The notes under the pieces: generated by a model
Databases searched by the model: none
The model's input: only the letters and a program-made list of their open reading frames with translations
What the model was told of the DNA's origin: nothing
Made by a program: the position numbers and the translations under genes
Shown here: piece after piece, positions 7,256-39,507 of the stretch
Layout: each line of letters starts with the position of its first letter
How positions within the stretch are numbered: the first letter of the stretch is position 1
Assembly (NCBI GenBank): GCA_965242865.1
Contig: CBDETK010000013.1
Coordinates: 4,416,001 to 4,480,000, forward strand
DNA length: 64,000 bases
Direction of reading: 5' to 3'
Source: Candidatus Latescibacterota bacterium
GTDB lineage: Bacteria; Latescibacterota; UBA2968; UBA8231

Positions 7256-7258
7256 GGC

Positions 7259-7549: not shown

Positions 7550-7584
7550 TTCCTAGGTTTCCCGTCGCAAGCGACCTTAGGGGC

Positions 7585-22672: not shown

Positions 22673-24742
22673 CTAGTACGCGACCCCGACGACGCGGCTT
22701 TGCTCGGCGTCGCCCGAATCACCAGCGACAAAGACGCGGGCCACGTACAGGCCCGGAGGAACGGCGCGACCGTGGTCGTCGCGGCCATCCCACGCTTTGT
22801 CTGTGTAGCGGCCATTGGCCTCTTCGCCGGCAAAGAGGACGCGCACGCGCCGGCCGCTCAAGTCGTAGAGCGCGACCTCAACCGGCCGCGGGGTGCTCAG
22901 TGCCAGCAGGTTGTAGAGGATGATCGCCTCGTCGTTGATGCCGTCGCCATTGGGGGTAAACGGATTGGGCGCAGCCTGCACTTGGCCCAACAGCTGCCCC
23001 TCGGCCAATACGGACGGGCTGAGTACCGTGGTGCCGGAAAAGGCGTCCTCGTCGCCCGCGCCCAAAAAGGCCACATTGCCCGGGTCGATCACTTGGGCGG
23101 CGCTCGGCTCGGTCGTGCTCCGCGCCGCGGCGGTGAAGTTGGTGCTGTACGTCAGCACGTTGGTCTGGAAGCGAATATGCACCTGCGTCTGGTCTTCGGT
23201 CACCGCGGGGAAGCGCACGGCAAAGCGGTCGTCGGCCACCTCGACAATGGCGAAGTCCCCACTCGCCTCGTCGAGATCGTGGTGCTCGGCCGCGATCGCG
23301 CCATTGGCATGGACGATCTGCACTGCGTCGATGCTCGACACGCGCGTCGGCGTGTTGATCTCAACGGTGTCGAAGCCGCGCAGGCCGGCCGTACCCATGG
23401 CGGCGCGCACGGCAAAGGTAAAGGACACTTCCTCAGCCACCGTTACCTCGCGGGGAAAGACTTCGCCGACCAAGGCGTCGGCAAACGGCGGCGTCAACAG
23501 CTCGAAGCTCAGCGCCCGGATCACCCGCGCCGCCTCTAGGTCGCTGCTGTTAAAAACGACCTCGAACTGCATGTAGCGGCGCGGGCTAGGCGAGACAATA
23601 GGCCCGTCCGCCGGATACGGCGTGCTGAAGGGGCTCCAATTGATCAGGTCGTCGGTCACGGCCCCGGCCATCCACTCGCGGCCGGCCGCATCGGTAACGG
23701 GCGTCTGGCCGGCCTTTTGGGGAAAGGTGCGGTACTCGGCTAGGCCCATCTCCTCCCCGGGGTTTTCCAGCGAAAAAGGGATGTCCTCGGCGTCTTGCTT
23801 GCCGCGCAGGCGGCGGGTGTACACAAAGGGCGAGGTGTCCGTGCCGGTGCGCGTGCGGATCTGCGCGCTGGAGAAGCGCGGGTCGCCCAACGCCTCTTCC
23901 ACCCAGCGCAGAGTGCCCCACACGGCCGGTTGCCCGGCGTCGAAAATGTTGGACACGTACTGGGCCCGCGACAAAAAGCCCTTGCCGAAAACCTCGATCT
24001 CGTCGATCTCAAAATCCACCGGCGAAGTCGCCCGCAAGCGCAGGTGCTGGACGTAGCGCGGGGGGTCGAGCGGCACGTCGATAACCGCAACTTGATTGTC
24101 GGTTTCGGCGATCAGGGGCTTCCAGATTGGGGTGTTCTCGCTGGTCAGGTTTAGGCCGTCGTTGGTAAACAGCTCGTAAGCCCGTAGGTAGTCGTTTTGG
24201 AAGGGGGTTGAGGGCGAGGCGACGACCGTGTTGCGCGGATAGATGCGGATCCGCTCCACCCCGAAGCGCGCTCCTAAATTGAGCAATACCAAGATGCCGA
24301 GGGCGTTCTGGCTCTTGCGCTCAAAGGCCAACAACTCGCCGCCCGGCTCGTCCGCGAGCAGCTCCTTTAACATCATCTCCAAGTCGAGCGGCTTGAACGT
24401 GCCACTGAAGTCGAAGACGTTGGGCGATTCAATGGTGCCGCCGCGGTCGATGGTGCCGACAGCCACGTTTTCTCCCTCGGCAATGCGCCGGGGCAGGATG
24501 CTGTGGGCAAAGTCCTCGCGGGTGAATTCGATTAAGTCGCCGGGCGCATTGCCCACCAGCAGGTTGTTGGGGTTCAAGGGCGAGCGGTGCTCGGCGTCTA
24601 TCGTAGAGACGGCCGCCTCGCCGTTGCCCTGCCAGTCCAAGTCGCCGCCCTCTCCAATCGAGACCGCGTCGAGGGCCAAACCTCCGCTCGACAGATAGAG
24701 CACCCAGGCGAAGCTAGCGGCCGCAGCACAATGCGCTTTCAT
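22673..24742 (-). CDS. Secreted paralog 1: discoidin-like domain + conserved core + FlgD-Ig/T9SS-B-like C-terminal domain
   Basis: RBS GGAGGA before ATG 24742, signal peptide, NLG, EIEVFGKGF, RTRTG, WSPFS, SPSPRRY, GFD, FTPNGDGIND, WDGRD, PGLY, ends GVAY. Confidence 0.8.
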   Translation of the reverse strand: MKAHCAAAASFAWVLYLSSGGLALDAVSIGEGGDLDWQGNGEAAVSTIDAEHRSPLNPNNLLVGNAPGDLIEFTREDFAHSILPRRIAEGENVAVGTIDRGGTIESPNVFDFSGTFKPLDLEMMLKELLADEPGGELLAFERKSQNALGILVLLNLGARFGVERIRIYPRNTVVASPSTPFQNDYLRAYELFTNDGLNLTSENTPIWKPLIAETDNQVAVIDVPLDPPRYVQHLRLRATSPVDFEIDEIEVFGKGFLSRAQYVSNIFDAGQPAVWGTLRWVEEALGDPRFSSAQIRTRTGTDTSPFVYTRRLRGKQDAEDIPFSLENPGEEMGLAEYRTFPQKAGQTPVTDAAGREWMAGAVTDDLINWSPFSTPYPADGPIVSPSPRRYMQFEVVFNSSDLEAARVIRALSFELLTPPFADALVGEVFPREVTVAEEVSFTFAVRAAMGTAGLRGFDTVEINTPTRVSSIDAVQIVHANGAIAAEHHDLDEASGDFAIVEVADDRFAVRFPAVTEDQTQVHIRFQTNVLTYSTNFTAAARSTTEPSAAQVIDPGNVAFLGAGDEDAFSGTTVLSPSVLAEGQLLGQVQAAPNPFTPNGDGINDEAIILYNLLALSTPRPVEVALYDLSGRRVRVLFAGEEANGRYTDKAWDGRDDHGRAVPPGLYVARVFVAGDSGDAEQSRVVGVAY

Positions 24743-24890
24743 TGCAATCCTCCGTGCGATTTGCGGCATAAAACAACCAAAGTACCGGCATAAATCAAGT
24801 TGAGCGCGGCTCGCCCGGCCCATGCCGAACTTGCTAAACGGCCCTCTCCTTTTCTTAATTACCAGCACTCAGTACTCAAGGAAGAGACCC

Positions 24891-27011
24891 ATGCAGCGCA
24901 TCATCGCTTTGTGTTTCCTGCTCGTCCTGTCCATGGCGCCGGCGCACGGCCGCGGGGAGTTTCGCGTTGGCGGGGCCGCTGGCAACCCTTGGTCCAGCCT
25001 GCTGTCGGAAGAAGGGGCCGGCGAGTACTGGCTCTTTGATGCCGAGGGCCAGCGCACGAGCACCGAACTCGTGGGCGTCACGCCCCACGGCGCGGCCGCC
25101 GACACCCTGATTGACTTTGCCGACGACGCCATTGGGCCGCGCTTCATCGACCCATTGGTCAATCTGACCCGCACCGATCCCAATTCCTCGTCCATCAAAA
25201 TTCCCCTGCCCTATATCGGCGGCGAGGCCCAGACCACCGATGGCTGCGGTGCGGTCGATAACCACACGCCCGTAGTCAAGAAGCAATTCGATGGCGATGT
25301 GACCACGGCGCACTTTCGTCGCTTCACCCCCGGTCAAGGCATCTTCAGCGGCGGCACCATCATCGCCGGGGTCACGGGCGAAGGCTGGAAAAACTCCGTG
25401 GTCATCGATTTTCGGGCGGCCGTACCGGTCAACCGCATTCGCTTCTTTCCGCGCCTCGGCCAAGAGGACGACCTATTGCTCATCAACGAACTCACCGAGC
25501 CGCGGCCCTCGTTGGCAACCTTTGGCGTAGATAGCTTTGCCAGCAACTTTCTCGCGTGGTACGAAATCCGCGTCGGCGACAACAATGTGCGCTTTGCCAA
25601 CAGCCCCTGCGACAAGGTCAGTGCCAACCTCTACGGCCTGCGCTGGGTGCGCAACCAAGACCCCGAGCTGACCGTGCTCGAATCCAACCGCGAAAACCTC
25701 GACCCCGTAGTAGAGCTGCGCTTTCCCACCGAGTCGATCCGCTGGATCACGGCCCAAGCCTTCCCCTTGCGCGACTGGGAGGTCGCTGAATTTGAGGTGT
25801 ACGGCGAGGGCTTTGTCGAGGAGACCGTGCTCGTCACCCAGATTCTCGACTTTGGCCAGCCGATCAACTGGGGCAAAATTCGCTGGGACGCCGCGGTGCC
25901 CGAGGGCACTCGCATTGAGGTCCGCACCCGCACCGGCAACACCCCGGACCCCAGCCTCTATTTCGCCGAAAACATCAACGGCGACATCCGCCCGATCACC
26001 TTGGCCGCGTACGAAAAGCTCGACCCGTCCGGCCGCCTGCCCACCGTGTACGACACCGACAACTGGAGCTTCTGGTCGCCGCCCTACGACTTTGCCGCGG
26101 GCTTGCGCGACAGCGCGGCACCGGACGAGGCGTGGCGCGACGGTACGCCGCTGTTGTCGCCCGGGCCGAGCCGCTACATCCAGCTCTCCTTTCGCCTGTT
26201 CGCCACCTTTACCACCGCGCCCCGCATCCGCTCCCTCGCGCTCCAATTCGGCAATGCACCGGCCGCCCGCGAAGTCCTCGGCGAGGTGTGGCCCATTGCC
26301 GTTGATTCCTTTGCGCCGCGGGAGTTTACGTACATCGTCCGGCCGGAGTTCAGTGCCGAAGACACCGGCTTTGACCGGCTGGAAATCCGCACGCACGCCC
26401 AAGTCCAATCCGTCGCGGGAGTTAGACGCGACGGCACCGCACTCGACTTGGACGACTTTGTCCCAAATATCCAAGCCGACCGCCTCGTGGTGTCCTTTCC
26501 CCGCCTGCAAGGCGAGGACGACAGCTTCAAGCAGCTCGAAGTGCGCTTTGTGGTGCCGGTCTTGCGCTTTGGCACCGAGTTTTCGGGCTGGGTTTTCGAC
26601 AGCGACGACCCCGATCAGATCAAACAGCAAGTCCGCCCGGGCAACGCCACCTTTCGCTTTTCGGGCGACGCGCTCGCGGTCAACACGCCCGTTGGCGGCC
26701 GGCTCCTCGTCAATGTGGCGGTGACTTCCAACCCACTTACGCCGAATGGCGACGGGCTGAACGAGACCGTGGAAATTGCCTACAAGCTGCGCGAGGTCAC
26801 GGCTGTTCGCCGGGTGCGGCTGGCGATCTACGACCTCGCCGGCCAGCTCGTGGTCGAGCTGCCGCCCATTGCCGCACGCAGCGGCGAGTTCGCCCATCGC
26901 TGGGACGGCCGCGACGCCGCTCGGCAACTCGTCCCCCCGGGCACCTATATCTGGCGGCTGCAATTAGAAGAGCAAGAAGAACGCGCCGGCATCCTCGCGG
27001 TTGCGTACTGA
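24891..27011 (+). CDS. Secreted paralog 2 of the same family
   Basis: Signal peptide MQRIIALCFLLVLSMAPAHG; IDF, EFEVYGEGF, RTRTG, WSFWS, SPGPSRY, GFDR, TPNGDGLNE, WDGRD, ends AVAY. Confidence 0.8.
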   Translation: MQRIIALCFLLVLSMAPAHGRGEFRVGGAAGNPWSSLLSEEGAGEYWLFDAEGQRTSTELVGVTPHGAAADTLIDFADDAIGPRFIDPLVNLTRTDPNSSSIKIPLPYIGGEAQTTDGCGAVDNHTPVVKKQFDGDVTTAHFRRFTPGQGIFSGGTIIAGVTGEGWKNSVVIDFRAAVPVNRIRFFPRLGQEDDLLLINELTEPRPSLATFGVDSFASNFLAWYEIRVGDNNVRFANSPCDKVSANLYGLRWVRNQDPELTVLESNRENLDPVVELRFPTESIRWITAQAFPLRDWEVAEFEVYGEGFVEETVLVTQILDFGQPINWGKIRWDAAVPEGTRIEVRTRTGNTPDPSLYFAENINGDIRPITLAAYEKLDPSGRLPTVYDTDNWSFWSPPYDFAAGLRDSAAPDEAWRDGTPLLSPGPSRYIQLSFRLFATFTTAPRIRSLALQFGNAPAAREVLGEVWPIAVDSFAPREFTYIVRPEFSAEDTGFDRLEIRTHAQVQSVAGVRRDGTALDLDDFVPNIQADRLVVSFPRLQGEDDSFKQLEVRFVVPVLRFGTEFSGWVFDSDDPDQIKQQVRPGNATFRFSGDALAVNTPVGGRLLVNVAVTSNPLTPNGDGLNETVEIAYKLREVTAVRRVRLAIYDLAGQLVVELPPIAARSGEFAHRWDGRDAARQLVPPGTYIWRLQLEEQEERAGILAVAY

Positions 27012-27146: not shown

Positions 27147-28058
27147 ATGCAAGAGCGGACCAAATTCGTCTTAGCGGCCGCGCTGGTCATGGGCTTGTGC
27201 GGTACGTCCTTTGGCCACGCGCCTCCCGGCGAGCTTTACTTCGCCGTGCAATTCCCCGACAACCTCGTCCCCACGATGGACGGCGACCTGTCGGACTGGG
27301 ATGTCGTGCCGATTGATCCGTACACGATCCGCAACGACCGCCTCTACTCGCCGGTGGCCGATATTCAGCCGGTGGGCCGCGGCGAGATCGATGTCAGCGA
27401 CATCAACATCCGCCACCTCATCGGCTGGAACGACAGCGCGAACAAGCTCTACTACATGTCCGAGGTGTTCGACAATGTCCACAACCTAGACCGCGAAAAT
27501 CCCTCGGCCTTCTGGCAGGACGACGCTTGGGAAGTAGAGGTCAACCCGGACCACACGCCGACCGAGGAGCACAACCTCGAAGGCGAGCCGGCCAACAACT
27601 TCAGCTACAAGTGGGCCGTGCCGCCGGTGGAAGGGGCCTATCAGTTCTACCGTCCGGTCAGTGCGCTAGAGTGGCTGGTCGATGGCAGCGAATGGGTGGA
27701 CTTTGGCTGGGGGTACGACGGCGAGCAGTTCGGCGAGAGCACCTATTACTACGAGCTGGCCATCACGCCAATCACCTCGCTGCCCAACGACGCGTCGGCT
27801 ACTCCCGATCAGGCCGTGGTTTTCGATCTCGCGGAAGAGGAGATCATCCACACGTCTGTGACCGTGGGCGACTTCGACGAGCCATGCACCGAGTGTGCGC
27901 TCGAAAGCTATCAAGGCTTCTGGACCATGTCGCCGGAAATGTGCTGCACAGCCACCAACGACGTGGTGTTGGCCCCGCTAGAGCCTTCGATGGCGGCCGC
28001 AGCCGACGGGACCTCGGTCGAGGACGTGAGCTGGGGGCAGATCAAGGCCGCGTACTAA
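27147..28058 (+). CDS. Secreted CBM9/DOMON-like protein with C-terminal SVE..SWGQIK tail
   Basis: RBS AAGGAGG, signal peptide, PTMDGDLSDW, GWND...LYY...D, DDAWEV, YYYEL, very acidic, ends TSVEDVSWGQIKAAY. Confidence 0.7.
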   Translation: MQERTKFVLAAALVMGLCGTSFGHAPPGELYFAVQFPDNLVPTMDGDLSDWDVVPIDPYTIRNDRLYSPVADIQPVGRGEIDVSDINIRHLIGWNDSANKLYYMSEVFDNVHNLDRENPSAFWQDDAWEVEVNPDHTPTEEHNLEGEPANNFSYKWAVPPVEGAYQFYRPVSALEWLVDGSEWVDFGWGYDGEQFGESTYYYELAITPITSLPNDASATPDQAVVFDLAEEEIIHTSVTVGDFDEPCTECALESYQGFWTMSPEMCCTATNDVVLAPLEPSMAAAADGTSVEDVSWGQIKAAY

Positions 28059-28085
28059 AAGCGGCGACCGCTTCTTCAGGGTATG

Positions 28086-28124
28086 CAAACGCCCTGCTTC
28101 CTTCGGGGAGCAGGGCGTTTGTTT
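28086..28124. terminator. Strong (probably bidirectional) intrinsic terminator
   Basis: CAAACGCCCTGCTTCC-TTCG-GGGAGCAGGGCGTTTG hairpin between convergent genes. Confidence 0.85.
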
Positions 28125-28177
28125 GGATTCATCGCTAAAGGCATTTTTGGCCGACCTTCGAGCCAAGTTACGGCGGG

Positions 28178-28996
28178 CTACCCTTCCTCCCGCGCCACCT
28201 TCCCCTTGACGATCCGCTCGGCCAGCGGCGGCCACAAGGCGTGGACCACCGCCAGCAGCCGCAGCCGTCGAGGCACGTATAGCTGCGGCTGTCGCTTCTG
28301 CATCCCGCGCACAATGGCCTGCGCCGCAGCCTCCAAGCTCACGGCTTCGGCGCGGTGTTTGCGCGATGCAGCCCCCAACGCCTTCCCGTCCTTCCCCAGA
28401 GCGCGTTGCCGGAGATCGGTCCCCTTGAGCCAGTGCAAGAGCACGGTCATCACCCCCACCCCGCTAGCGGCCACCTCCATCCGCAGCGCGTCGCAAAACC
28501 CCTGCAGCGCGTGTTTGGACGCGGAATACCCACTGTGCAGCGGCACCCCCACCTGCCCCTGAATGGACGAAATGGCCACGAAAAGGCCCTTGCTTTTTTT
28601 AAGATGCGGCAGCGCTGGATGCACGCAGTACACAGCCCCCAAGTAATTCACCTCCATCAGGGTGCGGAACAACGCCACCTCCTCGACCGCGGCAAATTCG
28701 GTCCACATGCTGAGGCCGGCGTTGGCGACCAAGTAGTCTATGCGGCCAAAGCGTGCGATCGCGGCCGCGACCAGCCGCTGGCCGGCCTCGGCGCGGGCCA
28801 CATCCCCGACGACGGTTTGCACCTCGCTGCCCGCCTGCTCGCAGGCGCGGGCCACGGCCGCTAGCCGCTCGGCATTGCGCGCCAAAATGACCAGCCGCGC
28901 TTCCCGCTGGGCGCATTCCAACGCCAGCGTCGCGCCCAAGCCCGTAGAAGCCCCGGTGATAACGACGGTCTTATTGCTCAGGCTCGTCGGGCGCAC
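28178..28996 (-). CDS. Short-chain dehydrogenase/reductase (DHRS7/DHRS7B-like); start codon uncertain
   Basis: TGASTGLG, ANAG, ISSIQG, YSASK. Likely GTG start at 28996 overlaps the upstream oxidase stop. Confidence 0.88.
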   Translation of the reverse strand: MRPTSLSNKTVVITGASTGLGATLALECAQREARLVILARNAERLAAVARACEQAGSEVQTVVGDVARAEAGQRLVAAAIARFGRIDYLVANAGLSMWTEFAAVEEVALFRTLMEVNYLGAVYCVHPALPHLKKSKGLFVAISSIQGQVGVPLHSGYSASKHALQGFCDALRMEVAASGVGVMTVLLHWLKGTDLRQRALGKDGKALGAASRKHRAEAVSLEAAAQAIVRGMQKRQPQLYVPRRLRLLAVVHALWPPLAERIVKGKVAREEG

Positions 28997-30812
28997 GGCC
29001 AAAAATCCCGTTTTGAATGCCAAAGATGTTCTGGGGATCCAGAGCCTGTTTGGTCTGGCGCAAGACCGCGATGCTGTTGTCGCTCTGGATGTGCCGGACG
29101 AAGCTCTGGCGAATTTTGCCAACCCCGTGGTGGTGGGACAGGGAGCCGCCGTGGTCCAAAATCGTCTGCCGCAGGGCGTGCTCAATGTCGTGATAGACCT
29201 CAATGGGGCGCGCCAATCCCCGCCCGGAAAACCCCATCGTAAAGTAGATGCACACCCCGGTGTGGTAGGTCTGCGTCACCCGGTACGACAGGTACGGCCG
29301 CCCGGCCACGCCGCGGGTGCTGCACTGCACGACGAGCTCGGCTTGCACGGCCTGCGTCACAGCGTGAATGCGGCTCCAAGGCACAGAGGTCTCAAAGGTC
29401 TCGCCCAAGAAATCGAACTGGTTCAAAAAGTCGCGGATATAGGCGATCCCAAAGGTCAGCATGTACCCGCGTCGGCCGTTGGTGGCCCCGGCGCTCCGGC
29501 CACCGTGGGCCTTGGCCAGCTTGAAGATCGTCCGCTTCTGGTGGGCCACCTCGGCGCGGCCCCCTTCCATGGCAATCGTACACGCCGCCATTTTTAGCGG
29601 GTCAAATCCCAATACCTTCAGTAGGGCGAACTTCTGCACCTTTTCCTTGAGCTGCTGTACGGGAGAGGGCGCGGCCTTGAGCGCCTGTCCAAAGCGGAAC
29701 TCTTGGTTGTTGACCAAGCGGATGCTCGCCGGCAAGGTCCCGGTCTGGCGCAACGCCTGCAAGTACTCCACGCCTTGGGCAAAGGACTTGAACACCAGCG
29801 AACCGTATTCGCGCACCTCTGGCAGGGGATGAATTTTGAGCACGGCCTTGGTGATGATGCCTAAGTTGCCCTCCGAGCCGAAAAGCAGCCCGCGCGGCTG
29901 GATGCCGGTCGAGTTGCGCGGGGTGGTGTGCAAGGTCTCCAGCGCACCGGTCGGCGTCACCAAGGTCGCTTCGAGCACGATGTCCTCGATGTTGCCGTAG
30001 CGGTTTTTCTTCATGCCGCTGGCGTTGGTCGCGATCCAGCCGCCCAAGGTCGAAAGCTCGATGCTGTCTGGGTCGTGGCCGGCCGTGTAGCCCCGGGCGG
30101 CGAGCGTGCGCTCCAGCTCCTTGCCCGAAATCCCCGCTTCAACGCAGGCTTGGAAGTTGTCCTCGTCGAGCTCGACGATCCGGTTCATGCGTCGCATGTC
30201 AACCGAGGCAAAGACGCGGTCGTCGTCGGCCGGCAGGGCCAACGCGCCGCTGACGTTGGTGCCGCCGCCGTAGGGCACGAGGCAAACGTCGCGCTCGGCC
30301 GCGAGGCGCACGATGACGCCCACCTGCTCTTCGCTTTCGGGGTACAGCACCAGATCGACCACGCGCTCCAAGTCGGAGCCGTAGAGCAGGCGATAGACCT
30401 CGTCGACGCTGAGCTGGCCGTGGCTGTGGATGAGGCGCTCGTCGTCGTCGAGCGAAACGCGCTCCGCGCCGAGCGCGGCCTGCCAAGCAGCGACGAGGCG
30501 GGCGTCGGCCCGCGAAGGCGGTACGCGATGATCCTCTTTTTCAATCGCTCGCTCGTCGGGATCGATCGGGACTTGAAGCATCTCCTCGACAAAGGGGATG
30601 AAATGGGGCATGGTGAAGCCGGCCAGCGGATAGCGCCGGCCCGTAACCCGCACGGTCTTAGGCCCGTCAAACTCAAAGCGGGTGTCCGCGTACCCCCATT
30701 TGTGCGGATGGCGTTCTCCGTCGGATACATCGTAGCACGCATCGGCCACGGCGTGGCGCACCACGGCCGCGGCGACTGCGACGACCGCGAGGACGACGGC
30801 GAATTCGATCAT
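28971..30812 (-). CDS. FAD-linked alkyl-dihydroxyacetonephosphate synthase (AGPS)-like protein
   Basis: HSHGQ, PYGGGTNVS, GHDPDSIELSTLGGW, ASGMKKNRYGNIED, GSEGNLG, SIRL, AYIRD, ETFETS, RVTQTY..G.CIYF, GGSLSHHHGVGK; RBS GGAG; hydrophobic N-terminus. Confidence 0.85.
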   Translation of the reverse strand: MIEFAVVLAVVAVAAAVVRHAVADACYDVSDGERHPHKWGYADTRFEFDGPKTVRVTGRRYPLAGFTMPHFIPFVEEMLQVPIDPDERAIEKEDHRVPPSRADARLVAAWQAALGAERVSLDDDERLIHSHGQLSVDEVYRLLYGSDLERVVDLVLYPESEEQVGVIVRLAAERDVCLVPYGGGTNVSGALALPADDDRVFASVDMRRMNRIVELDEDNFQACVEAGISGKELERTLAARGYTAGHDPDSIELSTLGGWIATNASGMKKNRYGNIEDIVLEATLVTPTGALETLHTTPRNSTGIQPRGLLFGSEGNLGIITKAVLKIHPLPEVREYGSLVFKSFAQGVEYLQALRQTGTLPASIRLVNNQEFRFGQALKAAPSPVQQLKEKVQKFALLKVLGFDPLKMAACTIAMEGGRAEVAHQKRTIFKLAKAHGGRSAGATNGRRGYMLTFGIAYIRDFLNQFDFLGETFETSVPWSRIHAVTQAVQAELVVQCSTRGVAGRPYLSYRVTQTYHTGVCIYFTMGFSGRGLARPIEVYHDIEHALRQTILDHGGSLSHHHGVGKIRQSFVRHIQSDNSIAVLRQTKQALDPQNIFGIQNGIFGRAPDEPEQ

Positions 30813-30845
30813 GGCTTCATCTCCTGGGAGGCAGGGGGCACCAAC

Positions 30846-31898
30846 CTACAGCCCCTCCTGCACATCCTTTTTCCGCACTTTCCAGATAAATGCGTCGTAG
30901 TAGTAGTGGATCAGGGCAAAGGAACTGAGCAGCGAATAGCTGAAGAGGTCGAAATTGGTGTTGAAGCCGACGAGGCCAAAGCCAAAGTCGCGCACCAAGC
31001 CCTCGCTCAGCGCGTGAAAGACGAGGGCGTAGGCCGCGCACAGCAGGATAAAGAACTTGACGCCCCGCTTGCTCGCCACGTAGCGCAGGAGGGCTGAATC
31101 GCCGCCCGTGCGCTCGACCTTGTGGCGGTTGTAGAAGTACACCATGACGATGTACTGAATCCCGTGCATGATCCGGTGCGCCACCGCAAACACGAGCAGA
31201 TAGGCCGTGGTAAAACTGGTGAAGTACCACAGGAAATAGCTCGACAGCAAAAAGGCGTACTTGAGGGGATTGAGGGCCAAGCCGCGCCGGGCGCAATAGG
31301 CGATGTGCCCCAAGTAAATCAGGCCGTAGCCAATGGCAAGGGTCCACGAAATTTGATGGACCCATTGCACGGCCTCCGCGCTGATCGGCAAGTGCCACTC
31401 GTGCAACATGCGCACCCAGACCGCGGAAAACAGCGGCGACACCACGAGCATATTGCCAAAGAAGATCCAATTGAAGGCCAAGTCGAACTTGGCGGTGGCC
31501 GGAGCGCCGGCCTTGGCCTTGAAGTCGTACACGCGCGCAAAGCCGTATTGCTGCATCAAGCTGTGCTGGTGATCCCACAAGGTCACGATCAACACCAAAC
31601 TCAACGGCGCCCACTGGATCAGGCCGTACGCAAAGGCGACCAACACCACCGGCCCGACGATGAACCGCTCCTTGAAGCGGGCGAACTCGGCCGGCGAGCC
31701 ATAGACGCGCAGCCACGTGACAAAGTGGTGGGGAATGGTCACCCACAGGGCAATGGCCGCTAGCGCAGCCCCCGGCAGGTAGTGCCCGGACACCAGCGCA
31801 AAGCAGACCGCGGCAAAGGGCAGGCTCACAAACCAGATGTAGTCCTGCCGGCGATCGACGATATAAGCAGGTTGGAGAACGATGGAATTAGTCGCCAT
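30846..31898 (-). CDS. Polytopic membrane protein with several His boxes, function unknown
   Basis: About 9-10 hydrophobic segments; PHHF, DHQHSLMQQYG, HRIMHGIQY, IHYYYDAFIWK. Confidence 0.75.
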   Translation of the reverse strand: MATNSIVLQPAYIVDRRQDYIWFVSLPFAAVCFALVSGHYLPGAALAAIALWVTIPHHFVTWLRVYGSPAEFARFKERFIVGPVVLVAFAYGLIQWAPLSLVLIVTLWDHQHSLMQQYGFARVYDFKAKAGAPATAKFDLAFNWIFFGNMLVVSPLFSAVWVRMLHEWHLPISAEAVQWVHQISWTLAIGYGLIYLGHIAYCARRGLALNPLKYAFLLSSYFLWYFTSFTTAYLLVFAVAHRIMHGIQYIVMVYFYNRHKVERTGGDSALLRYVASKRGVKFFILLCAAYALVFHALSEGLVRDFGFGLVGFNTNFDLFSYSLLSSFALIHYYYDAFIWKVRKKDVQEGL

Positions 31899-33465
31899 GA
31901 GCAGTGGCCAACAGGGCTAACGCCACAGCGTCGGGGCTGAAGCGGATTTCGTGGGCGCGACGCTGGCGCACGGTCGCGGCCAGCTCCTGCACCGCCGCTT
32001 GGAGCTGGGCCTCGGCCCAATCGGCCTCCACCTCGGCGCGGATTTCGTCCAGCCGCGGCAGGCGGGCCGGGCGGCGGCGCAACACGTGCAGGACAATATA
32101 ACCATTCTCCGTGGCAAAGGGGCCGTGGAACGTCCCTTCGGCGGCGCGGAGGGCGCGGCTGACCGGGTTGTCGCCCTCTAAGGCGCCGCGGCCGTAAATC
32201 ACGCTGACAAAGCGATCGACCAGCGCGGTCGTATCGCGCCCGGCGCGCAGCCGCTCGACAATGGCGGTGCCCTCGGCCTGGTCGCGCGCCAGCAACCGGC
32301 GCACCTCCACCTCGGCCGGCGCAGTGTACCGGACCTTGTGCTCCTCGTAAAACAGGCGCAGGCCGTTGGGATCGGGCGCGGGCACCTGCGCTCGCAGCGC
32401 GTCCTGCAAGCGGCGCGCGAGCTGGGCCTGCCGCAGTCGCTCCAACTCGCGCTGTAGGCCGGGGTCGTCGGCCAGCGCGAGCCGTGCGATTTCGAGGGGG
32501 ACCAGCACCTGCCGGCCGACCTCGCGCCGCAGCACCTCGTGGCGCGCGCCTTGGCCTCTTAGCAGCGCACGGGCCTGCGCGACCGTTAGCGCCCCGCTGT
32601 CGTACTCGACCGCGACCGCCTCGGCCGCCCGGCCCGCGTCCAGCCCATCCGGCTCGTAGCGCACGTTGTAGCGCGCGTGGAGGGTATCGTAATACGCCAA
32701 CAGTTGCCGCCCGAGCTTTTCCCGCAGCACCAAGCGCAACACGGTCTCTCGCTCCTGCTCAAAGCTGACCGGGTGCGTGTCCGTGAGCTTGATGAGAAAG
32801 TACCCGTCGGCCACCTGCATCGGCTCGGAAATTTCCCCGACCTGCATGGCGAAGGCCCGTTCGGTCAGGGCGGCATGCGAGGCCATGGTATCGCCCCAGC
32901 GGTGATAGCCCATGTCGGCGCGCCGCTCCAAAATCCGCGAGTCCTGCGAGTGTTGCAGCGACAGCTCCTCAAAGTCTGCCCCGGCGTCGAGGGCCGCCAA
33001 AATCTCCGGTAGCTGGGCGGGGTCGCGCACCATCAGCAGGCTGAAGCGCACGCGGCGGTTGTACGGGCTGCGCTGGAAATAGGCCCGTAGCTCCTCTTCG
33101 GCAACCTCGGGCTGGGCGATCCCGGCGCGGGTGTACAGGGCCTGTTGCACCAGCCGCGCCCGCGCCTGCGCCTGCCATTGCAAAAACTCCGCGCGCTCGC
33201 CCAAGCCGCGCCGCTCGGCTTCCTGCACGAGCAGCGTTTGCTCGACGATGGCGTCCAAGAGTTGCTCGGCCCCGTACTCGGCCCGCAATTCCGGCGCGAC
33301 CTTGGCGAGGTACTGGCGGTAGTCTGCCACCCGAATCGCGGTTTGGCCCACCTCCACCAAAACGGCCTCTTCAGCGGCCCCGGCCGGGCCGTCCTCGGCG
33401 CAGCCGCTCGCGCCGAGCAGCACCGCGCAAAGGGCCGGGCGCACCCAACGCTTATTTAGCTGCAC
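31888..33465 (-). CDS. SurA/PrsA-like PpiC-type peptidyl-prolyl isomerase lipoprotein
   Basis: Lipobox ASGC, LLVQEAERRGL, GADFEELSLQHSQD, DMGY, GEISEP, second rotamase-like repeat (FHGPFATENGY). Confidence 0.8.
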   Translation of the reverse strand: MQLNKRWVRPALCAVLLGASGCAEDGPAGAAEEAVLVEVGQTAIRVADYRQYLAKVAPELRAEYGAEQLLDAIVEQTLLVQEAERRGLGERAEFLQWQAQARARLVQQALYTRAGIAQPEVAEEELRAYFQRSPYNRRVRFSLLMVRDPAQLPEILAALDAGADFEELSLQHSQDSRILERRADMGYHRWGDTMASHAALTERAFAMQVGEISEPMQVADGYFLIKLTDTHPVSFEQERETVLRLVLREKLGRQLLAYYDTLHARYNVRYEPDGLDAGRAAEAVAVEYDSGALTVAQARALLRGQGARHEVLRREVGRQVLVPLEIARLALADDPGLQRELERLRQAQLARRLQDALRAQVPAPDPNGLRLFYEEHKVRYTAPAEVEVRRLLARDQAEGTAIVERLRAGRDTTALVDRFVSVIYGRGALEGDNPVSRALRAAEGTFHGPFATENGYIVLHVLRRRPARLPRLDEIRAEVEADWAEAQLQAAVQELAATVRQRRAHEIRFSPDAVALALLATAHGD

Positions 33466-34822
33466 GGTCTTCCTTCATCTTTTGAATCGCCGCCAATTCC
33501 CGCTTGCTCTTTTCCACATCCCCTGCTTTTAGATAGGCGATGGCCAATTTTTGCCGCGCAGCTAAAAATTCCGGTCGCCCGGCCACTGCGGTTGCCAACG
33601 CTTCGGCGGCCCGCGCAAAGTCGCCCTCGCGTGCATAGAGCAAGCCCAAGAAGTAGTTGACATCCACATCGTCGGGCGTCCGCTCGTGCGCTGCGCGCAG
33701 GCTCGCGAGGGCCTCGTCAAAGCGCTGCAAGCGCAGCTGCGCTTGGCCCAAATTGTAGTGGGCCTTGGCATATGCTGGGTCCAAGGCCAGCGCGGCTTGG
33801 TATTCGGCGATGGCCGCGGCGAATTGGCCCGAGCGCAGGTAGAGGTTGCCCAAGTTGTTGCGGTAGCGCAAGCTGTCCGGCGCCAAGCGCACGGCCAGCC
33901 GGTACGCTTCGGCCGCTTCGGCCAAGCGGCCCTGCTCCGCGTACAACAGCGCGAGTTGCGCCCGCGCCTCGTGGTCGTCGGGCGCGTTGCCCAGCATCCG
34001 CAGTTGGTCGTCAATTTTGTCGAGTTGCCGGTCGAGCACCCGAAACCGCGCCAGCACTTGGGCACTCTCCGCGCGGTGGCCGAGCCGCTTGAGGGCACTG
34101 GCCAGCGCGAAATACGCCTCCTTAGACAAGGAGTCGAGCGCGACCGCCCGGCGGGCAGCCCGTTCAGCGGCTGCGTACGCGCGCCGCTTGAGTTCCACCT
34201 GCGCCAAATCGACGTACGCGGCCGCAACCGTGCTGTCCAGCGCGACCGCTCGCCGCAGCGCGGTAGCGGCCCGCTCAAAGTCGAGCTCCTTCAGGCGCGT
34301 CCGGCCCAAGAGCCGATAGAAGGACGCATTCGTGGAGTCGCGGGCCAGCCCTGCTTGCAGCAGCGTTTCCACTTCGCCGTACTCGCCGCGCAAGAAGTAG
34401 ATGTAAGCGAGGTCGTAGTACGTCGTCAGATGGCCGGGGTCCAACGCGAGCACCCGGCGGTGTTCGTCCATGGCTTGGGCGTAGTTGAGCTGCTTGACGT
34501 ACAGGGCTGCGAGGTTGTGCCGCGCCGATACGTGCGTTGAGTCGAGTGCCAAGACGCGCTGATAGGCGGCCATGGCGCGGGGGTAATCGAGCGAGCGCAC
34601 GTAAGCATTGCCTACGTTGTAGTGGATTTTGGCGGACTCAGGCGCGAGCGCGGCGGCTTGTTGGTACGCGTCAATGGCCTCGGTGTGGCGGCCCTCGGCC
34701 GCGAGCGCAATGCCGCGCACAAAGAGGGCTTCGGCCTCTAGAGCCGCGCCCGGGCGCACTTTTTCTGGCGGGCTTTGCTCCGCACAGGCGCACCAGACGA
34801 GGCAGAAAAGTAGGACTCTCAT
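33452..34822 (-). CDS. Tetratricopeptide repeat protein (exported)
   Basis: Many TPRs (IHYNVGNAY, ARHNLA, RNNLGNLY, AHYNLG); short Cys-containing signal; ATGA overlap with the upstream gene. Confidence 0.88.
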   Translation of the reverse strand: MRVLLFCLVWCACAEQSPPEKVRPGAALEAEALFVRGIALAAEGRHTEAIDAYQQAAALAPESAKIHYNVGNAYVRSLDYPRAMAAYQRVLALDSTHVSARHNLAALYVKQLNYAQAMDEHRRVLALDPGHLTTYYDLAYIYFLRGEYGEVETLLQAGLARDSTNASFYRLLGRTRLKELDFERAATALRRAVALDSTVAAAYVDLAQVELKRRAYAAAERAARRAVALDSLSKEAYFALASALKRLGHRAESAQVLARFRVLDRQLDKIDDQLRMLGNAPDDHEARAQLALLYAEQGRLAEAAEAYRLAVRLAPDSLRYRNNLGNLYLRSGQFAAAIAEYQAALALDPAYAKAHYNLGQAQLRLQRFDEALASLRAAHERTPDDVDVNYFLGLLYAREGDFARAAEALATAVAGRPEFLAARQKLAIAYLKAGDVEKSKRELAAIQKMKEDRAAK

Positions 34823-36444
34823 CGCGTCGCTCCTTCGACGAGCAGGTGCTCTTGGTCGATGCCTAAGTCCGCGTATTCCTCGACCCGACCGCTCGGCCAG
34901 TAGAGGACCACGCGCTCAATGCTCGTGGCCGTGCCCAGCCCAAAGTGTAGCCGCAGATCGCTTTGGGAGAGAAAACTGGCTCCGGAGCGCACTTCGTCGG
35001 TCTGCACCTGCCCGCCGCTGGTGACTTCGACGCGCACACCAATGCCGGCCGCATTGCTGTCGCGGCCGGCGAGCCGCAGGCGCACATAGTGCCCGCTCGC
35101 GCCGTCGTTGCGCATCAAGGTCGGCGCGGTGGCGACATTGGTCACGAGGACATCGATATCGCCATCGTCGTCGTAGTCGCCAAAGGCCGCGCCGCGGCTG
35201 ACTCGTTTTAGGGACAGCGCGCCGCCATCGGCTGCGTATTCGGCAAAGCGACCATCGCCGGTGTTGAGAAAGAGCTGATTGCGCTGGGGAAAGGTCGCGT
35301 TCTCGTATTGCTCGACGTCGCTTTCCAAGTGGCCATTGGCGATAAAAATATCGCGGTCGCCGTCGTTGTCCGCGTCGAAAAAGCGCGTCCCCCACGCCAA
35401 GTACGCAATCGTGCCCTTGCCCAATCCGGCGAGGAAGGTCTCATCGACAAAGGTGCCGTCGCCGAGGTTTTTGTACAGGGTATTGGTCTCCCACTGAAAG
35501 TTGGTGACGAAAAGGTCGTAGTCGCCGTCGTTGTCGTAATCGCCCATGTCAACGCCCATGCCCGCTTCGACGTCGCCGTCCTCGTTGTACGCCGCGCCAG
35601 CCAAAAGTGCTTCTTCGGCAAAGTGGCCGGTGCCGTCGTTGAGGTACAAGAAGTTCGCGGTTTTGTCGTTGGCTAGGTAGAGGTCTGGGTCGCCGTCGCG
35701 GTCCACGTCGCCAAAGACCACGCCGAGCTCCTTGCCCTCGGTGCTGCCCAGCCCGGCAGCCGCCGTGACGTCGGCAAAGGTGCCGTCGCCTTCGTTCCGG
35801 TACAGCACGTCGGCCACCCCGTCAAAAGCCTCTGGGCCGCAGTAGAGTTGCAAGCCGCTGCCGCCCTCGGCGCAGACGCGGTGGTTGGCATAAGAGAAGT
35901 TGTGGTAATTGCCCACGTACAAATCCACGAAGCCGTCGCGGTCCACGTCGGCAAACGCAGCCGACGCTCCCCAGCCCTCGTCGCCGACTTCGGCGGTAGC
36001 TGTGACATCGGCAAAGGTGCCGTCGCCCTCGTTTCGGTACAGCACATTGGCGCCGAAGTTGGTCGCGTACAGGTCGAGGTCGCCGTCGTTGTCGTAGTCG
36101 CCGACTGCTATGCCCATGCCGTAGCCGGTGTCGCCGACGCCGGCGCGCTCGGTTACATCGGCAAACGTGCCGTCGCCTCTGTTGCGGTAGAGCGCGTTTT
36201 GCGGCGCCGGGTCGTATTCGGTCCCCGGCACGGCGCCGCCGTTGATCAGGTAGATGTCGAGGCGACCGTCGCTGTCGTAGTCGAAAAAGCCGCCGCCCGG
36301 GCCGACCGTTTCAATGACGAATTTCTGGCCGTTGGCCCCGTTGACGTGGACGAAGCCGATGCCCGCGTCGTGGGTGGCGTCGTGGAAGTGCGGGTTGGCG
36401 TGGAGGGGGACGGATAGGAGGAGCAGCAGCAGGAAATTGAGCAC
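34819..36444 (-). CDS. CRTAC1 / ASPIC-UnbV family protein (FG-GAP/VCBS beta-propeller)
   Basis: Repeated DYDNDGDxD and LYRNxGDGTF, AGMGVD, SRGAAFGD, C-terminal SFLSQSDLRLHFGLG and WPSG; signal peptide. Confidence 0.92.
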   Translation of the reverse strand: MLNFLLLLLLSVPLHANPHFHDATHDAGIGFVHVNGANGQKFVIETVGPGGGFFDYDSDGRLDIYLINGGAVPGTEYDPAPQNALYRNRGDGTFADVTERAGVGDTGYGMGIAVGDYDNDGDLDLYATNFGANVLYRNEGDGTFADVTATAEVGDEGWGASAAFADVDRDGFVDLYVGNYHNFSYANHRVCAEGGSGLQLYCGPEAFDGVADVLYRNEGDGTFADVTAAAGLGSTEGKELGVVFGDVDRDGDPDLYLANDKTANFLYLNDGTGHFAEEALLAGAAYNEDGDVEAGMGVDMGDYDNDGDYDLFVTNFQWETNTLYKNLGDGTFVDETFLAGLGKGTIAYLAWGTRFFDADNDGDRDIFIANGHLESDVEQYENATFPQRNQLFLNTGDGRFAEYAADGGALSLKRVSRGAAFGDYDDDGDIDVLVTNVATAPTLMRNDGASGHYVRLRLAGRDSNAAGIGVRVEVTSGGQVQTDEVRSGASFLSQSDLRLHFGLGTATSIERVVLYWPSGRVEEYADLGIDQEHLLVEGATR

Positions 36445-36457
36445 AGTCTGGACGGGG

Positions 36458-36946
36458 CTATCCGGGCAAACGGGTCAAGATCAGCGTTCCAAGCGCGATG
36501 AGCGTTGTTATCTGAATGCCGATAAGCCAGCGAAAATCGCGGCGGTGCTCTTGCCGCAAGCTGGCCATGTCCTGCCGGTGGGTGGCTTCAAGGGCCTCGA
36601 GGCGGCGATGGATGGTCGCCATGTCCTGCCGCAAGCTGGCCACGTCCTGCTGCAAGCTAGCCACGTCCTGCTGCAAGCTAGCCACGTCCTGCTGCAAGCT
36701 AGCCACGTCCTGCTGCAAGCTAGCCACGTCCTGCTGCAAGCTAGCCACGTCCTGTCGGTGGGTGGCTTCGAGGGCCTCGAGGCGGCGATGGATGGTCGCC
36801 ATGTCCTGCCGCAAGTTGGCCATGTCCTGCCGGTGGGTGGCGTCCATGCTCTCTAACCGGGCGGCTATCTGCTCAAGGCTTCCCTCGAGGCGGCCGGCTT
36901 GGACGTGTGCGGCTAGATGCTCTTCTATGGGAGACGGGGTGGTCAT
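36458..36946 (-). CDS. Heptad-repeat coiled-coil protein with C-terminal membrane anchor (DUF1640/Bdr-like)
   Basis: (Q/R)QD(V/M)ASL repeats, then FRWLIGIQITTLIALGTLIL; RBS AAGGAG. Confidence 0.75.
   Translation of the reverse strand: MTTPSPIEEHLAAHVQAGRLEGSLEQIAARLESMDATHRQDMANLRQDMATIHRRLEALEATHRQDVASLQQDVASLQQDVASLQQDVASLQQDVASLQQDVASLRQDMATIHRRLEALEATHRQDMASLRQEHRRDFRWLIGIQITTLIALGTLILTRLPG
36632..36754. repeat. 21-bp tandem repeat, about 6 copies (in-frame VNTR)
   Basis: caagctagccacgtcctgctg units start at 36632, 36653, 36674, 36695, 36716 and 36737 (last partial); flanked by a duplicated longer block. Confidence 0.95.
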
Positions 36947-37440: not shown

Positions 37441-38124
37441 CTAATCGGATAGCCGGAAGGGCGGATACTGATCGGTGACTAGGATAAAAGCGTACGCGAC
37501 GACGCGCAGCCACCAGCGACTGACGCCAATGACCAGATTGAACAAGTCTCGGGGGTAGCGTTCAGTAAAGAGGATGGCGAACCAAGCCCCGATGGTACAG
37601 AGGACGGCCACGAGGCTCAGTGGGATCAGGATGATGTAGTGAGGAATGGCTAAAAACCACTTGACTAGCGGCAACCAGCGGTTGAGGTCTTGCTGGGCAT
37701 CTGGGTAATCAATGTCGAGGTGGATCGCCTGTTCCTCGTCCGTGGAGGGGTATTCGTCGCGCAGCAGCCCTAAGTAGGCTGAGACCCGGCAGGAGAAGCG
37801 CAGGAGCTCGAGGTTCCAGTCGAACCACCAGCGGGGGTACTTGCGGCGGAAGAGCAGCATGAGCACCGCCGGAATGAAAATCAAGCCTGAGATGGTCGTG
37901 ATGAAGGGAGGGGTCTTGTCGTAATCCCAATGATCCCAATACCAGAGTGCCGAATCAACCCAGTTCCAACTCCAACTCCAACTCGCCCCATCGTCTATGC
38001 TGGCCAAGACGATAAAAATGGGAATGACGGTAAACAGCCGGAAGAAGGTCGTGAGGCGATTGCGGGGCTGGTCGGGATAATCGACCTCATAGCGAAGGGG
38101 ATAAGAATCGGTGGGTGCGTTCAT
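37441..38124 (-). CDS. DUF4389 family membrane protein
   Basis: Two repeats ending LLRDEYP and LVTDQYPPF, RWLPLVKWFLAIPH; RBS AGGAG before ATG 38124. Confidence 0.85.
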   Translation of the reverse strand: MNAPTDSYPLRYEVDYPDQPRNRLTTFFRLFTVIPIFIVLASIDDGASWSWSWNWVDSALWYWDHWDYDKTPPFITTISGLIFIPAVLMLLFRRKYPRWWFDWNLELLRFSCRVSAYLGLLRDEYPSTDEEQAIHLDIDYPDAQQDLNRWLPLVKWFLAIPHYIILIPLSLVAVLCTIGAWFAILFTERYPRDLFNLVIGVSRWWLRVVAYAFILVTDQYPPFRLSD

Positions 38125-38190
38125 GGGGACGCTCCTGAAGGGGTGTGAAAGGGCTTTGGGGAGCCTCAAAAAGCAAGCGTTATGGAATAC

Positions 38191-38607
38191 CTAGGCCGCG
38201 AGAGACAGCAAGCTATTCAACGTGTCTGTCGTCCGCGTTGAACTCAAAGTTCGGTGTAATCTAGTACGGAATACCTGTTCACTCTGGCAGGGAACCTCAA
38301 CCTGTGCTTCTTCTCCTTCAGCAAGATCATCAGACAGGACGAGTGGATAGTACTCTCTCAGCGGATAGGTCACCGTAACTATATCCAGACGATAGCGATC
38401 CAGCGCCGGAACGGTGACAGCTAACGTCGAGCGAAATCTCCGTGTTCCGAGCCCACTTGTAGCAACCGAAGCCCTGATACGGGGGCCGATTTTTTCGTTC
38501 AGAACACTTGCCTGCTCCTTTAGTATCTGGACGGGCGTCCCCTGCTCACCAATAACTTGGAAATCACCCCAGTAGTCTTGTGTCGGTATCTTGTGTTGAA
38601 TGGCCAT
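38191..38607 (-). CDS. Hypothetical protein, partner of the EEP nuclease
   Basis: 138 aa, strong RBS GAGGAGG, DYWGDF...TPVQILKEQA; lower GC like its neighbour. Confidence 0.75.
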   Translation of the reverse strand: MAIQHKIPTQDYWGDFQVIGEQGTPVQILKEQASVLNEKIGPRIRASVATSGLGTRRFRSTLAVTVPALDRYRLDIVTVTYPLREYYPLVLSDDLAEGEEAQVEVPCQSEQVFRTRLHRTLSSTRTTDTLNSLLSLAA

Positions 38608-38626
38608 CTCAAAATCCTCCTCTTGG

Positions 38627-39451
38627 TCAAGTGATGTTCAGTGAAAGGGCTATCGGCAAGTGATCCGAAAATCGGAGATCGTCTGGTCGGCCGTTGGCTC
38701 GAAGCAAGCTCTCGCCGCCCAGCTCCGTAATGGCGGTTGGCACTTCATCGCCTAGAGCGGGTATTAGGTCTGGCCGTAATAGCACTTGGTCGAATACGTG
38801 CCAGTAGTAACGGACGTAATCTGGCTCTTGGTAGTAGTAAGTTCCTAACGGTGCTTGGCGTCGTCCGTACGCCGTCCACATTGGATTGTAGAAGTACTTG
38901 TACGTTCGACCATCCCGCTGACAGCTAACGCGAGCAGCCACCTCTGGGTCCATGACGGCGTTTAGTGCCTCCAGATGGACGAGCTCTCCATCAAAGGGAT
39001 TTTGGTTGAGATCGCCGACGACGATGGTCCTGTCTGTTCCCGATGCACTTTCTTCTCTGAGAATGTCTTGGCATAGCTGCTGAAACTGTGGGAGGCGATT
39101 GTCCAAGCCCGTATAGCCGATCCTATGCTTTGCTGGCATGTGAACGGCGACTAATACGAGGGGTTCCTCATCGGACAACGCCAGTTGATAAATTGTCCAG
39201 AATTTGGCGTGGTGAAGGGTCTGTACTTGAGCGGCAGAAAACCGGTGATACAGGGATACTCGACGTTGGGGCAGTATCCTATCGCCAGCCAAAAAGTCGC
39301 GGTCGTATTGCCTGAGCTGCGTAAGGATTTCCTCTGTACTATCCGGCATTTCCGCGAGAACTACAATATCTGCTTCCCTTTCCTCGGCCAATAGACCGAC
39401 AGACTCTGCTAGGGATTTTCTCTTTAGATTCCAGAACAGTAGATTCAGCAT
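38627..39451 (-). CDS. Endonuclease/exonuclease/phosphatase (EEP, DNase I-like) family protein
   Basis: FWN, VLAE, AVH, VGDLNQNP, GTYYY, FDQVLL, SDHLPI catalytic set. Confidence 0.87.
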   Translation of the reverse strand: MLNLLFWNLKRKSLAESVGLLAEEREADIVVLAEMPDSTEEILTQLRQYDRDFLAGDRILPQRRVSLYHRFSAAQVQTLHHAKFWTIYQLALSDEEPLVLVAVHMPAKHRIGYTGLDNRLPQFQQLCQDILREESASGTDRTIVVGDLNQNPFDGELVHLEALNAVMDPEVAARVSCQRDGRTYKYFYNPMWTAYGRRQAPLGTYYYQEPDYVRYYWHVFDQVLLRPDLIPALGDEVPTAITELGGESLLRANGRPDDLRFSDHLPIALSLNIT

Positions 39452-39507
39452 CCTAAGCCCTTTAGAGTACCTTAAAACGGGCACTATACTGCGTCAAATC
39501 CGTCTCG

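Follow-up and report, generated by a model that had tools for sequence, protein, structure and literature searches.

Background

Does an uncultured, sponge-associated bacterium of Candidatus Latescibacterota encode, in two overlapping genes, consecutive steps of the ether-lipid synthesis known from animals? The question is raised by a 64,000-nt stretch of contig CBDETK010000013.1 (hereafter the window), which belongs to a genome of 6.0 Mb that is 93.6% complete. An initial annotation, made from the sequence alone, proposed that a minus-strand oxidase gene in the window encodes the alkyl-dihydroxyacetone phosphate (alkyl-DHAP) synthase AGPS, and that the overlapping gene for a short-chain dehydrogenase/reductase (SDR) encodes an acyl/alkyl-DHAP reductase of the DHRS7B/PexRAP subfamily. 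We consider it probable that the two genes provide consecutive steps of the AGPS-dependent, 'aerobic-type' ether-lipid pathway in Candidatus Latescibacterota.

AGPS homologues of this phylum, including those of sponge symbionts, are already published, and the initial annotation is outdated where it says that bacterial AGPS-type synthesis is discussed mainly for myxobacteria. The available part of one report counts Agps homologues in 67 of 92 Latescibacterota metagenome-assembled genomes (MAGs) (PMC11868695), and that of another describes sponge Latescibacterota MAGs with co-located agps and elbD matches, plus 'standalone elbD hits' (10.64898/2026.06.23.733905). According to the accessible sections of the PNAS version of 10.1101/2025.10.10.681575, all four of fatty acyl-CoA reductase (FAR), GNPAT, AGPS and PEDS1 were found in six phyla only. 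The Latescibacterota entries in the hit tables of that study, as far as these are accessible, hold 39 occurrences of FAR, 32 of AGPS and none of GNPAT or PEDS1, a pattern that agrees with the present analysis, and the available text of the preprint has 0 occurrences of PexRAP or DHRS7B (10.1101/2025.10.10.681575). The pairing of AGPS with an SDR and a non-canonical acyltransferase (AT), described below, are modest additions; neither was found reported in the literature searched, which is not proof of absence.

Identity of the oxidase

Both open reading frames (ORFs) lie where the initial annotation had placed them, and the motifs that it listed were recovered: ASGMKKN.YGNIED, SIRL, AYIRD, FETS.PW, RVTQTY..G.CIYF and SHHHGVG all occur in the 613-aa oxidase, and VAISSIQG and YSASKHA in the minus-strand ORF that ends at 28178. 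The oxidase matches the Pfam families PF01565 (FAD_binding_4, E 3.8e-39) and PF02913 (FAD-oxidase_C, E 5.5e-35). Its top PDB match with phmmer is guinea-pig AGPS (4bby; E 7e-146, 490 bits), aligned over query residues 38-601 and chain residues 95-656 with approximately 42% identity (236 of 564 residues, by hand count of the identity line); the second AGPS in the PDB, from Dictyostelium (2uuu), is matched at E 4e-86. Outside AGPS, the highest-scoring chain is a glycolate oxidase (E 1e-26, 97 bits), which aligns only from query residue ~152-154, and all GlcD-type models of NCBIfam score far below their cut-offs. The alignment with 4bby takes in the AGPS-type N-terminal domain ahead of the FAD domain, which relatives of GlcD and D-lactate dehydrogenase do not have; GlcD-type matches begin at query residue ~152. 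Trp39, Gly40 and Asp43 are found in 71 of 73 sequences (the window protein and 72 orthologues), the remaining two being gapped at these positions.

Tyr523 is aligned on Tyr578 of the guinea-pig enzyme, in exactly the column that distinguishes 4bby from 4bca, the entry of the Y578F mutant. Tyr523, His560, His561, His562 and Arg365 are each conserved in 73/73 sequences. Their counterparts Tyr578, the His615-617 loop and Arg419 are residues that we take to be catalytic in guinea-pig AGPS, of which mutant entries (4bca, 4bc7) are among the PDB matches. Whether the protein would instead cluster with generic FAD oxidases, a test proposed with the initial annotation, was addressed with a quick maximum-likelihood (ML) tree of 54 rows, comprising the window protein, 51 orthologues and two GlcD-like fragments from the same genome; rows of at least 88% identity (all but four), rows shorter than 560 aa and four loci without an extracted AGPS ORF were omitted. 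The AGPS clade is split from the two GlcD-like paralogues with an SH-aLRT support of 100. The tree covers bacteria only, and the AGPS homologues among the 120 matches listed are all close bacterial relatives; a published attempt at a phylogeny found the phylogenetic signal of AGPS insufficient. The AGPS assignment is upheld by the end-to-end alignment, including the N-terminal domain, and by the conserved Tyr, His-His-His and Arg, and it is strongly supported that the ORF encodes a full-length AGPS orthologue with intact catalytic residues.

The alignment with guinea-pig AGPS begins at query residue 38 and leaves out the hydrophobic N-terminal 20 residues of the window protein, which may be a membrane anchor. 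Separately, a database protein of 1060 aa (P0058), 66% identical to the window AGPS, also contains the aminotransferase-type domains PF00155, PF01212 and PF01053; it would be either a fusion or a gene-calling artefact.

The partner reductase

The SDR matches adh_short (Pfam, E 9e-47) and the NCBIfam model NF004825 (287 bits against a cut-off of 215). Its longest ORF runs from a TTG at 29203 to 28178 and overlaps AGPS by 233 nt. Since the 268-position NF004825 profile matches only from residue 74 of this ORF, and a GTG at 28996 gives a protein of 272 aa, the real overlap is most likely 26 nt, with the AGPS stop codon at 28971-28973. This overlap suggests translational coupling. A spacing of -26 also occurs in 21 of the 67 related loci that were measured; the two genes overlap in 29 of these and are separated by 0-150 nt in 27, whereas the other 11 have a gap of more than 150 nt with an inserted gene (687-1771 nt). 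At one locus (L025, 7480-9093, plus strand), the gene inserted between AGPS and SDR encodes 537 aa with a weak match to PhyH (phytanoyl-CoA dioxygenase).

The TGASxGLG motif, Asn117, Ser144, Tyr157 and Lys161 are invariant in 17/17 SDR orthologues, as are the C-terminal residues His188, Trp189, Gly192, Thr193, Arg196 and His214, which are specific to the family. Judged by its conserved place beside AGPS, the SDR is most likely an acyl/alkyl-DHAP reductase, and it is our candidate for that step.

Gene order in relatives

Arrangements were typed by tblastn at 76 related loci from a species-genome scan. Most loci are labelled Candidatus Latescibacterota, and several Gemmatimonadota-labelled ones fall inside the same AGPS clades; further loci come from Trueperaceae, Aquisalimonas, Vicinamibacterales and Akkermansiaceae, with AGPS 57-69% identical. 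AGPS is found with bacterial partner genes under five different phylum labels. The arrangements are membrane protein-AGPS-SDR (25 loci), FAR-AT-AGPS-SDR (22), AGPS-SDR (17), FAR-AGPS-SDR (5), AGPS alone (4), membrane protein-AGPS (2) and FAR-AGPS (1). An orthologous SDR is thus downstream of AGPS in 69/76 loci, in several phyla. Among the loci without SDR, two (L030, L066) end at or inside AGPS, and two others (L020, L027) extend only ~1.0-1.2 kb beyond it.

FAR and AT share an operon with AGPS in relatives of the window. The upstream FAR gene encodes NAD_binding_4 and Sterile domains in 4/4 scanned of the 22 FAR-AT-AGPS-SDR loci (Pfam), which is the architecture of alcohol-forming reductases. 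In 4/4 FAR-AGPS-SDR loci scanned (L068, L070, L072, L075), the FAR is instead a FAR-Acyltransferase fusion (FARAT) of 804-899 aa, and the FARAT-AGPS-reductase arrangement occurs in Trueperaceae and Aquisalimonas loci. The Akkermansiaceae locus has the order AGPS-SDR-DAG kinase-like gene-PlsC-type acyltransferase. In the ML tree, the window AGPS lies in a membrane protein-AGPS clade with a support of 100, beside the FAR-AT type, and the FARAT type is basal; the Vicinamibacterales branch is long and unreliable.

One locus labelled Trueperaceae (L057, 4142-12129) has the split FAR-AT-AGPS-SDR operon of Latescibacterota type and an AGPS inside the Latescibacterota clade, and so differs from three other Trueperaceae loci, where FAR and AT are fused as FARAT. 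Either gene transfer or a binning error may account for this. An FA_desaturase gene lies ~500 nt downstream of the SDR at the same locus.

Distribution in the phylum

Among 168 Latescibacterota genomes, AGPS is present in 125, SDR (called at E <= 1e-55, excluding own-genome paralogues) in 118 and AT in 132. Three families of one class account for most occurrences of the three genes, which are nearly absent elsewhere: AGPS, SDR and AT were found in 71, 67 and 73 of the 75 genomes of family f1, in 22, 22 and 22 of the 22 genomes of f3, and in 29, 28 and 31 of the 31 genomes of f4. All SDR-positive genomes are also AGPS-positive (118/118). Linkage and co-occurrence of AGPS, SDR and AT are thus directly observed.

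Sequencing runs labelled sponge metagenome contain 0.45-0.58 of the sampled words of the window. Contigs from four RNA libraries (three studies) match relatives (~88-95% alike) of the SDR, AGPS and membrane protein genes; one of 4567 nt spans 28434-32000, and two bridge the AGPS/SDR junction. These contigs were not counted as evidence of expression, because DNA can occur in such libraries and the contigs do not show transcripts; bins without them carry no meaning.

Candidate sources of acyl-DHAP and fatty alcohol

The window contains no DHAP acyltransferase or FAR, as the initial annotation had stated, and the genome search that it called for found an acyltransferase and a FAR domain elsewhere in the genome. 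The AT, second gene of the operon in relatives, encodes 640-685 aa with no Pfam match at 1e-3. Its orthologue in the window's genome (C13:2862511-2864563) is 44% identical to the operon AT, has 683 aa in the longest ORF (relatives align from ~residue 31) and adjoins PepSY_TM and TonB-receptor genes. His483 is found in 15/15 orthologues, with Asp or Glu at +5 in 15/15 (an HX4D-type motif), and the copy in the window's genome also reads Glu-Gly-Thr at the third acyltransferase motif. An AlphaFold2 (AF2) model of an AT (pLDDT 74.5) has a helical N-domain of ~430 residues and a C-terminal alpha/beta domain. The best solved match of the model in Foldseek is PlsC (5kym; E 4.7e-4, TM 0.59 on the target), followed by plastid GPATs, PatA and human GPAT1; the family profile matched nothing among PDB sequences (best E 0.44), and the Pfam scan of the AT gave no match to GPAT_C. 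The protein is acyltransferase-like but not a GNPAT by sequence or architecture, since motif and fold are present, PF01553 stays below threshold and GPAT_C is missing. It would be a non-canonical acyltransferase, with DHAP as its putative acceptor.

In the genome, a single FAR domain scores strongly (196 bits, with eight others at 33-43 bits). It forms the N-terminal part of an ElbD-like protein of 1403 aa (L077:4912-9123, minus strand; C13 ~88.9-93.1 kb), encoded 4.35 Mb from the window beside a YegS-type lipid kinase gene and an MlaD gene. The protein comprises FAR (NAD_binding_4 and Sterile), AMP-binding and Acyltransferase domains and a weak match to PP-binding, and it fits the 'standalone elbD hits' of sponge Latescibacterota. 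A search of the genome (93.6% complete) for PF10520 (Lipid_desat, CarF/PEDS1) gave nothing at E <= 0.01, and 14 control genomes were equally silent. Because PEDS1/CarF was not found, alkyl (plasmanyl) ethers are predicted rather than plasmalogens.

Locus and neighbouring genes

The AGPS and SDR genes end a run of five tightly packed minus-strand genes (Table 1), with successive spacings of -14, -11 and +33 nt and then the AGPS/SDR overlap. The G+C content is 0.637 in 28001-30000 and 0.62-0.68 in the flanks; by this match the AGPS/SDR region is native to the genome. A scan of 27900-36700 for promoters and terminators found sites no more common than in shuffled sequence.

Table 1. Positions in the window of the five-gene run and of AGPS and SDR features
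Feature	Position	Strand	Basis or remark
TPR protein	33452-34822	-	
SurA-like PPIase	31888-33465	-	
Polytopic membrane protein, 350 aa	30846-31898	-	33 nt upstream of AGPS
AGPS orthologue, 613 aa, ATG start	28971-30812	-	Pfam FAD_binding_4 and FAD-oxidase_C; phmmer against PDB
AGPS hydrophobic N-terminal 20 residues	30753-30812	-	translation
Arg365, counterpart of Arg419	29718-29720	-	alignment with 4bby, codon checked
Tyr523 codon, counterpart of catalytic Tyr578 (guinea-pig AGPS)	29244-29246	-	alignment with 4bby, codon checked
His560-His561-His562, counterpart of His615-617 loop	29127-29135	-	alignment with 4bby, codons checked
AGPS 3' end / proposed SDR start overlap, 26 nt	28971-28996	-	sequence
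Classical SDR, 272 aa from GTG 28996, candidate acyl/alkyl-DHAP reductase	28178-28996	-	adh_short, NF004825

The membrane protein gene adjoins AGPS only in the window's own clade (27/76 loci). Its product has no Pfam or NCBIfam match, and atlas clusters give only 'hypothetical'. The family has 738 representatives at E <= 1e-3, with C-terminal TPR repeats in 13 of the 17 scanned, and two paralogues in the same genome (L079, L080; 28-29% identity). His57, His112, His245, His331, Asp19, Asp139 and Asp335 are invariant across 28 sequences. The AF2 model is confident (pLDDT 88.7); against the PDB, Foldseek gave no match at E <= 1e-3 (TM <= 0.25), and VIA-align matched only generic helical hairpins (Z <= 8.0, residues ~130-207). 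A role for this His-rich protein as a PEDS1-like desaturase partner was considered and is unsupported, given the missing family match, the TPR fusions and the adjacency to AGPS in the window's clade only. As its gene accompanies AGPS in a single clade, with a TPR gene two positions upstream, the protein is probably outside the lipid module and more likely belongs with the TPR/PPIase genes.

Elsewhere in the window, a 162-aa ORF (36458-36946, minus strand) contains about six tandem copies of the seven-residue unit QQDVASL, bordered by two near-identical longer blocks, with a coiled-coil appearance. Two divergent genes of ~730 aa each (22673-24868, minus strand; 24822-27011, plus strand) overlap at their 5' ends by ~47 nt as called, and both products end in CHU_C (type IX secretion sorting) and FlgD_ig domains. 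The 2-kb bins 6001-8000 and 38001-40000 have a G+C content of ~0.555, against 0.60-0.68 elsewhere in the window.

Proposed pathway and alternative explanations

In the pathway that we propose, AGPS, a flavoenzyme, would replace the acyl chain of 1-acyl-DHAP by a fatty alcohol, which creates the ether bond of 1-O-alkyl-DHAP. The SDR would then reduce the 2-keto group with NAD(P)H, and the resulting 1-O-alkyl-glycerol-3-phosphate would enter ordinary phospholipid synthesis. Acyl-DHAP would come from the 683-aa non-canonical acyltransferase, and the fatty alcohol from the FAR domain of the 1403-aa ElbD-like protein. The exchange activity of AGPS is predicted; we infer the substrate of the SDR, the use of DHAP by the AT and, because PEDS1/CarF was not found, the alkyl (plasmanyl) end product.

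Several observations weigh against this pathway. FAR and AT are not adjacent to AGPS in the window's genome. PF01553 reaches at best 17.2 bits on the AT, under its cut-off of 23. Three loci (L043, L051, L074) have no SDR although their sequence runs on for at least 7 kb past AGPS, and seven AGPS-positive genomes (G034, G038, G065, G093, G117, G120, G151) have none at the threshold used; two of the seven have a divergent AGPS (46-47% identity). As the genomes are related and not independent, the co-occurrence counts overstate the support, and they describe a pattern rather than constitute a test. The residue after strand 2 of the SDR, the usual NADPH marker, is mostly Arg among the 17 orthologues, but two have Leu-Asp instead. 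The nearest solved chains of the SDR are those of 11-beta-HSD1 (99.9 bits), marginally above the unrelated clavulanic acid dehydrogenase (94.9 bits). 11-beta-HSD1 and DHRS7B belong to one SDR subgroup. The 'DHRS7B/PexRAP subfamily' label of the initial annotation is not established by such scores, and 'DHRS7B-like' is a lead, not a result; its placement of the SDR at the next pathway step is supported by the gene order and by the co-occurrence. Finally, in the available part of a sponge study with symbiont agps, no short-chain (bacterial-type) plasmalogens were detected (10.64898/2026.06.23.733905).

The SDR might have a different job beside a true AGPS, such as reducing a fatty aldehyde to the alcohol that AGPS uses or acting on another lipid carbonyl, with another enzyme reducing alkyl-DHAP. 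SDR substrates are unreadable from sequence, and the homologues among the matches listed (best 120 of 374) and the atlas clusters bear generic names throughout. Some 25 other SDR paralogues are encoded in the genome, and the third gene of the Myxococcus xanthus AGPS operon encodes another kind of reductase, according to the available part of the report (10.1101/2025.10.10.681575). We nevertheless regard a different job as unlikely. A separate aldehyde reductase is unneeded because the co-located FARs carry NAD_binding_4 and Sterile. The pathway step that comes straight after AGPS calls for a ketoreductase. Where the SDR is found, it comes after AGPS and not after FAR, and it remains beside AGPS in loci that lack FAR, such as the 17 AGPS-SDR loci.

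The sponge habitat allows two further explanations. The module could remodel or salvage host lipids, turning sponge-derived fatty alcohols or acyl-DHAP into signalling or storage ether lipids. The signal in sponge metagenome runs would fit this, as would the loss, in the window's genus, of the adjacent FAR and AT that are present in sister clades; sponges are described as rich in ether lipids in the available part of 10.64898/2026.06.23.733905. Yet AT is kept in 29/30 other genomes of the genus, and the ElbD-like protein contains a FAR domain. The trait is also not specific to symbiosis, because the genes occur in three families and, in the accessible part of the report, in Black Sea water-column Latescibacterota MAGs (PMC11868695). 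Salvage therefore seems quite improbable. A recent transfer of AGPS from the eukaryotic host, suggested by the habitat and by ~42% identity to the mammalian enzyme, we judge to be extremely improbable, as it is already contradicted by distribution, composition and operon context: AGPS is present in 125/168 genomes of the phylum and near-complete in three families, its composition matches the flanks, and it lies within bacterial operons with bacterial partners under five phylum labels. Its identity to the mammalian enzyme is no higher than the ~42% given for M. xanthus and human AGPS in the available part of 10.1101/2025.10.10.681575.

The preferred reading, consecutive AGPS and SDR steps, can be extended. 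One Latescibacterota class, together with scattered Deinococcota, Verrucomicrobiota and Gammaproteobacteria, might run a complete AGPS route in which two steps are performed by proteins invisible to screens with eukaryotic queries: a classical SDR family would be the alkyl-DHAP reductase, and a 650-aa AT with a helical N-domain and a PlsC-like fold would replace GNPAT. We put this forward tentatively, with slightly less than even confidence. If true, far more bacteria would have a complete AGPS route than the 'six phyla' found with canonical FAR, GNPAT, AGPS and PEDS1 queries, and the non-isoprenoid 1-O-alkylglycerols of sponges and sediments might come from these abundant uncultured bacteria. 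Candidate genes can now be named for two steps of the bacterial route, the alkyl-DHAP reductase and a non-canonical DHAP acyltransferase, and the route would be a conserved, vertically kept trait of the whole Latescibacterota class, sponge symbionts included. This helps to identify which organisms make the alkylglycerol ether lipids of sponges and marine samples, and bears on surveys of the 'eukaryotic' ether-lipid pathway among bacteria.

Comparison with known systems

The window protein has the three-part architecture of peroxisomal AGPS (EC 2.5.1.26; 4bby, 2uuu), namely an N-terminal domain, a FAD-binding domain and a cap, and shares its catalytic Tyr, His-His-His loop and Arg. It differs in having a hydrophobic 20-residue N-terminus instead of a peroxisomal targeting context, and in being encoded within a bacterial operon, where its gene overlaps that of an SDR.

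The M. xanthus operon MXAN_1676-1675-1674 encodes AGPS, a FAR-GNPAT fusion 'FARAT' (MXAN_1675) and an NAD-dependent epimerase/dehydratase, according to the accessible portion of 10.1101/2025.10.10.681575. Both systems are AGPS-based bacterial ether-lipid operons, and Trueperaceae and Aquisalimonas share the FARAT-AGPS-reductase form. In contrast, the reductase of the window type is a classical SDR of 268-280 aa rather than of the epimerase/dehydratase type. FAR and AT are separate genes in Latescibacterota, the AT having ~650 aa with a ~430-aa helical N-domain that Pfam misses, and in the window's genus both have moved away from AGPS.

DHRS7B/PexRAP and yeast Ayr1, which are acyl/alkyl-DHAP reductases, are classical SDRs proposed for the same step as the bacterial SDR. 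The bacterial family has invariant C-terminal residues of its own, and a specific kinship is not demonstrated. With the ElbD pathway (elbB-elbE) of myxobacteria, the window's genome shares a multidomain protein of the ElbD kind, and M. xanthus likewise has a separate ElbD. Myxobacterial ElbD works without AGPS, whereas the ElbD-like protein of the window's genome may simply supply fatty alcohol.

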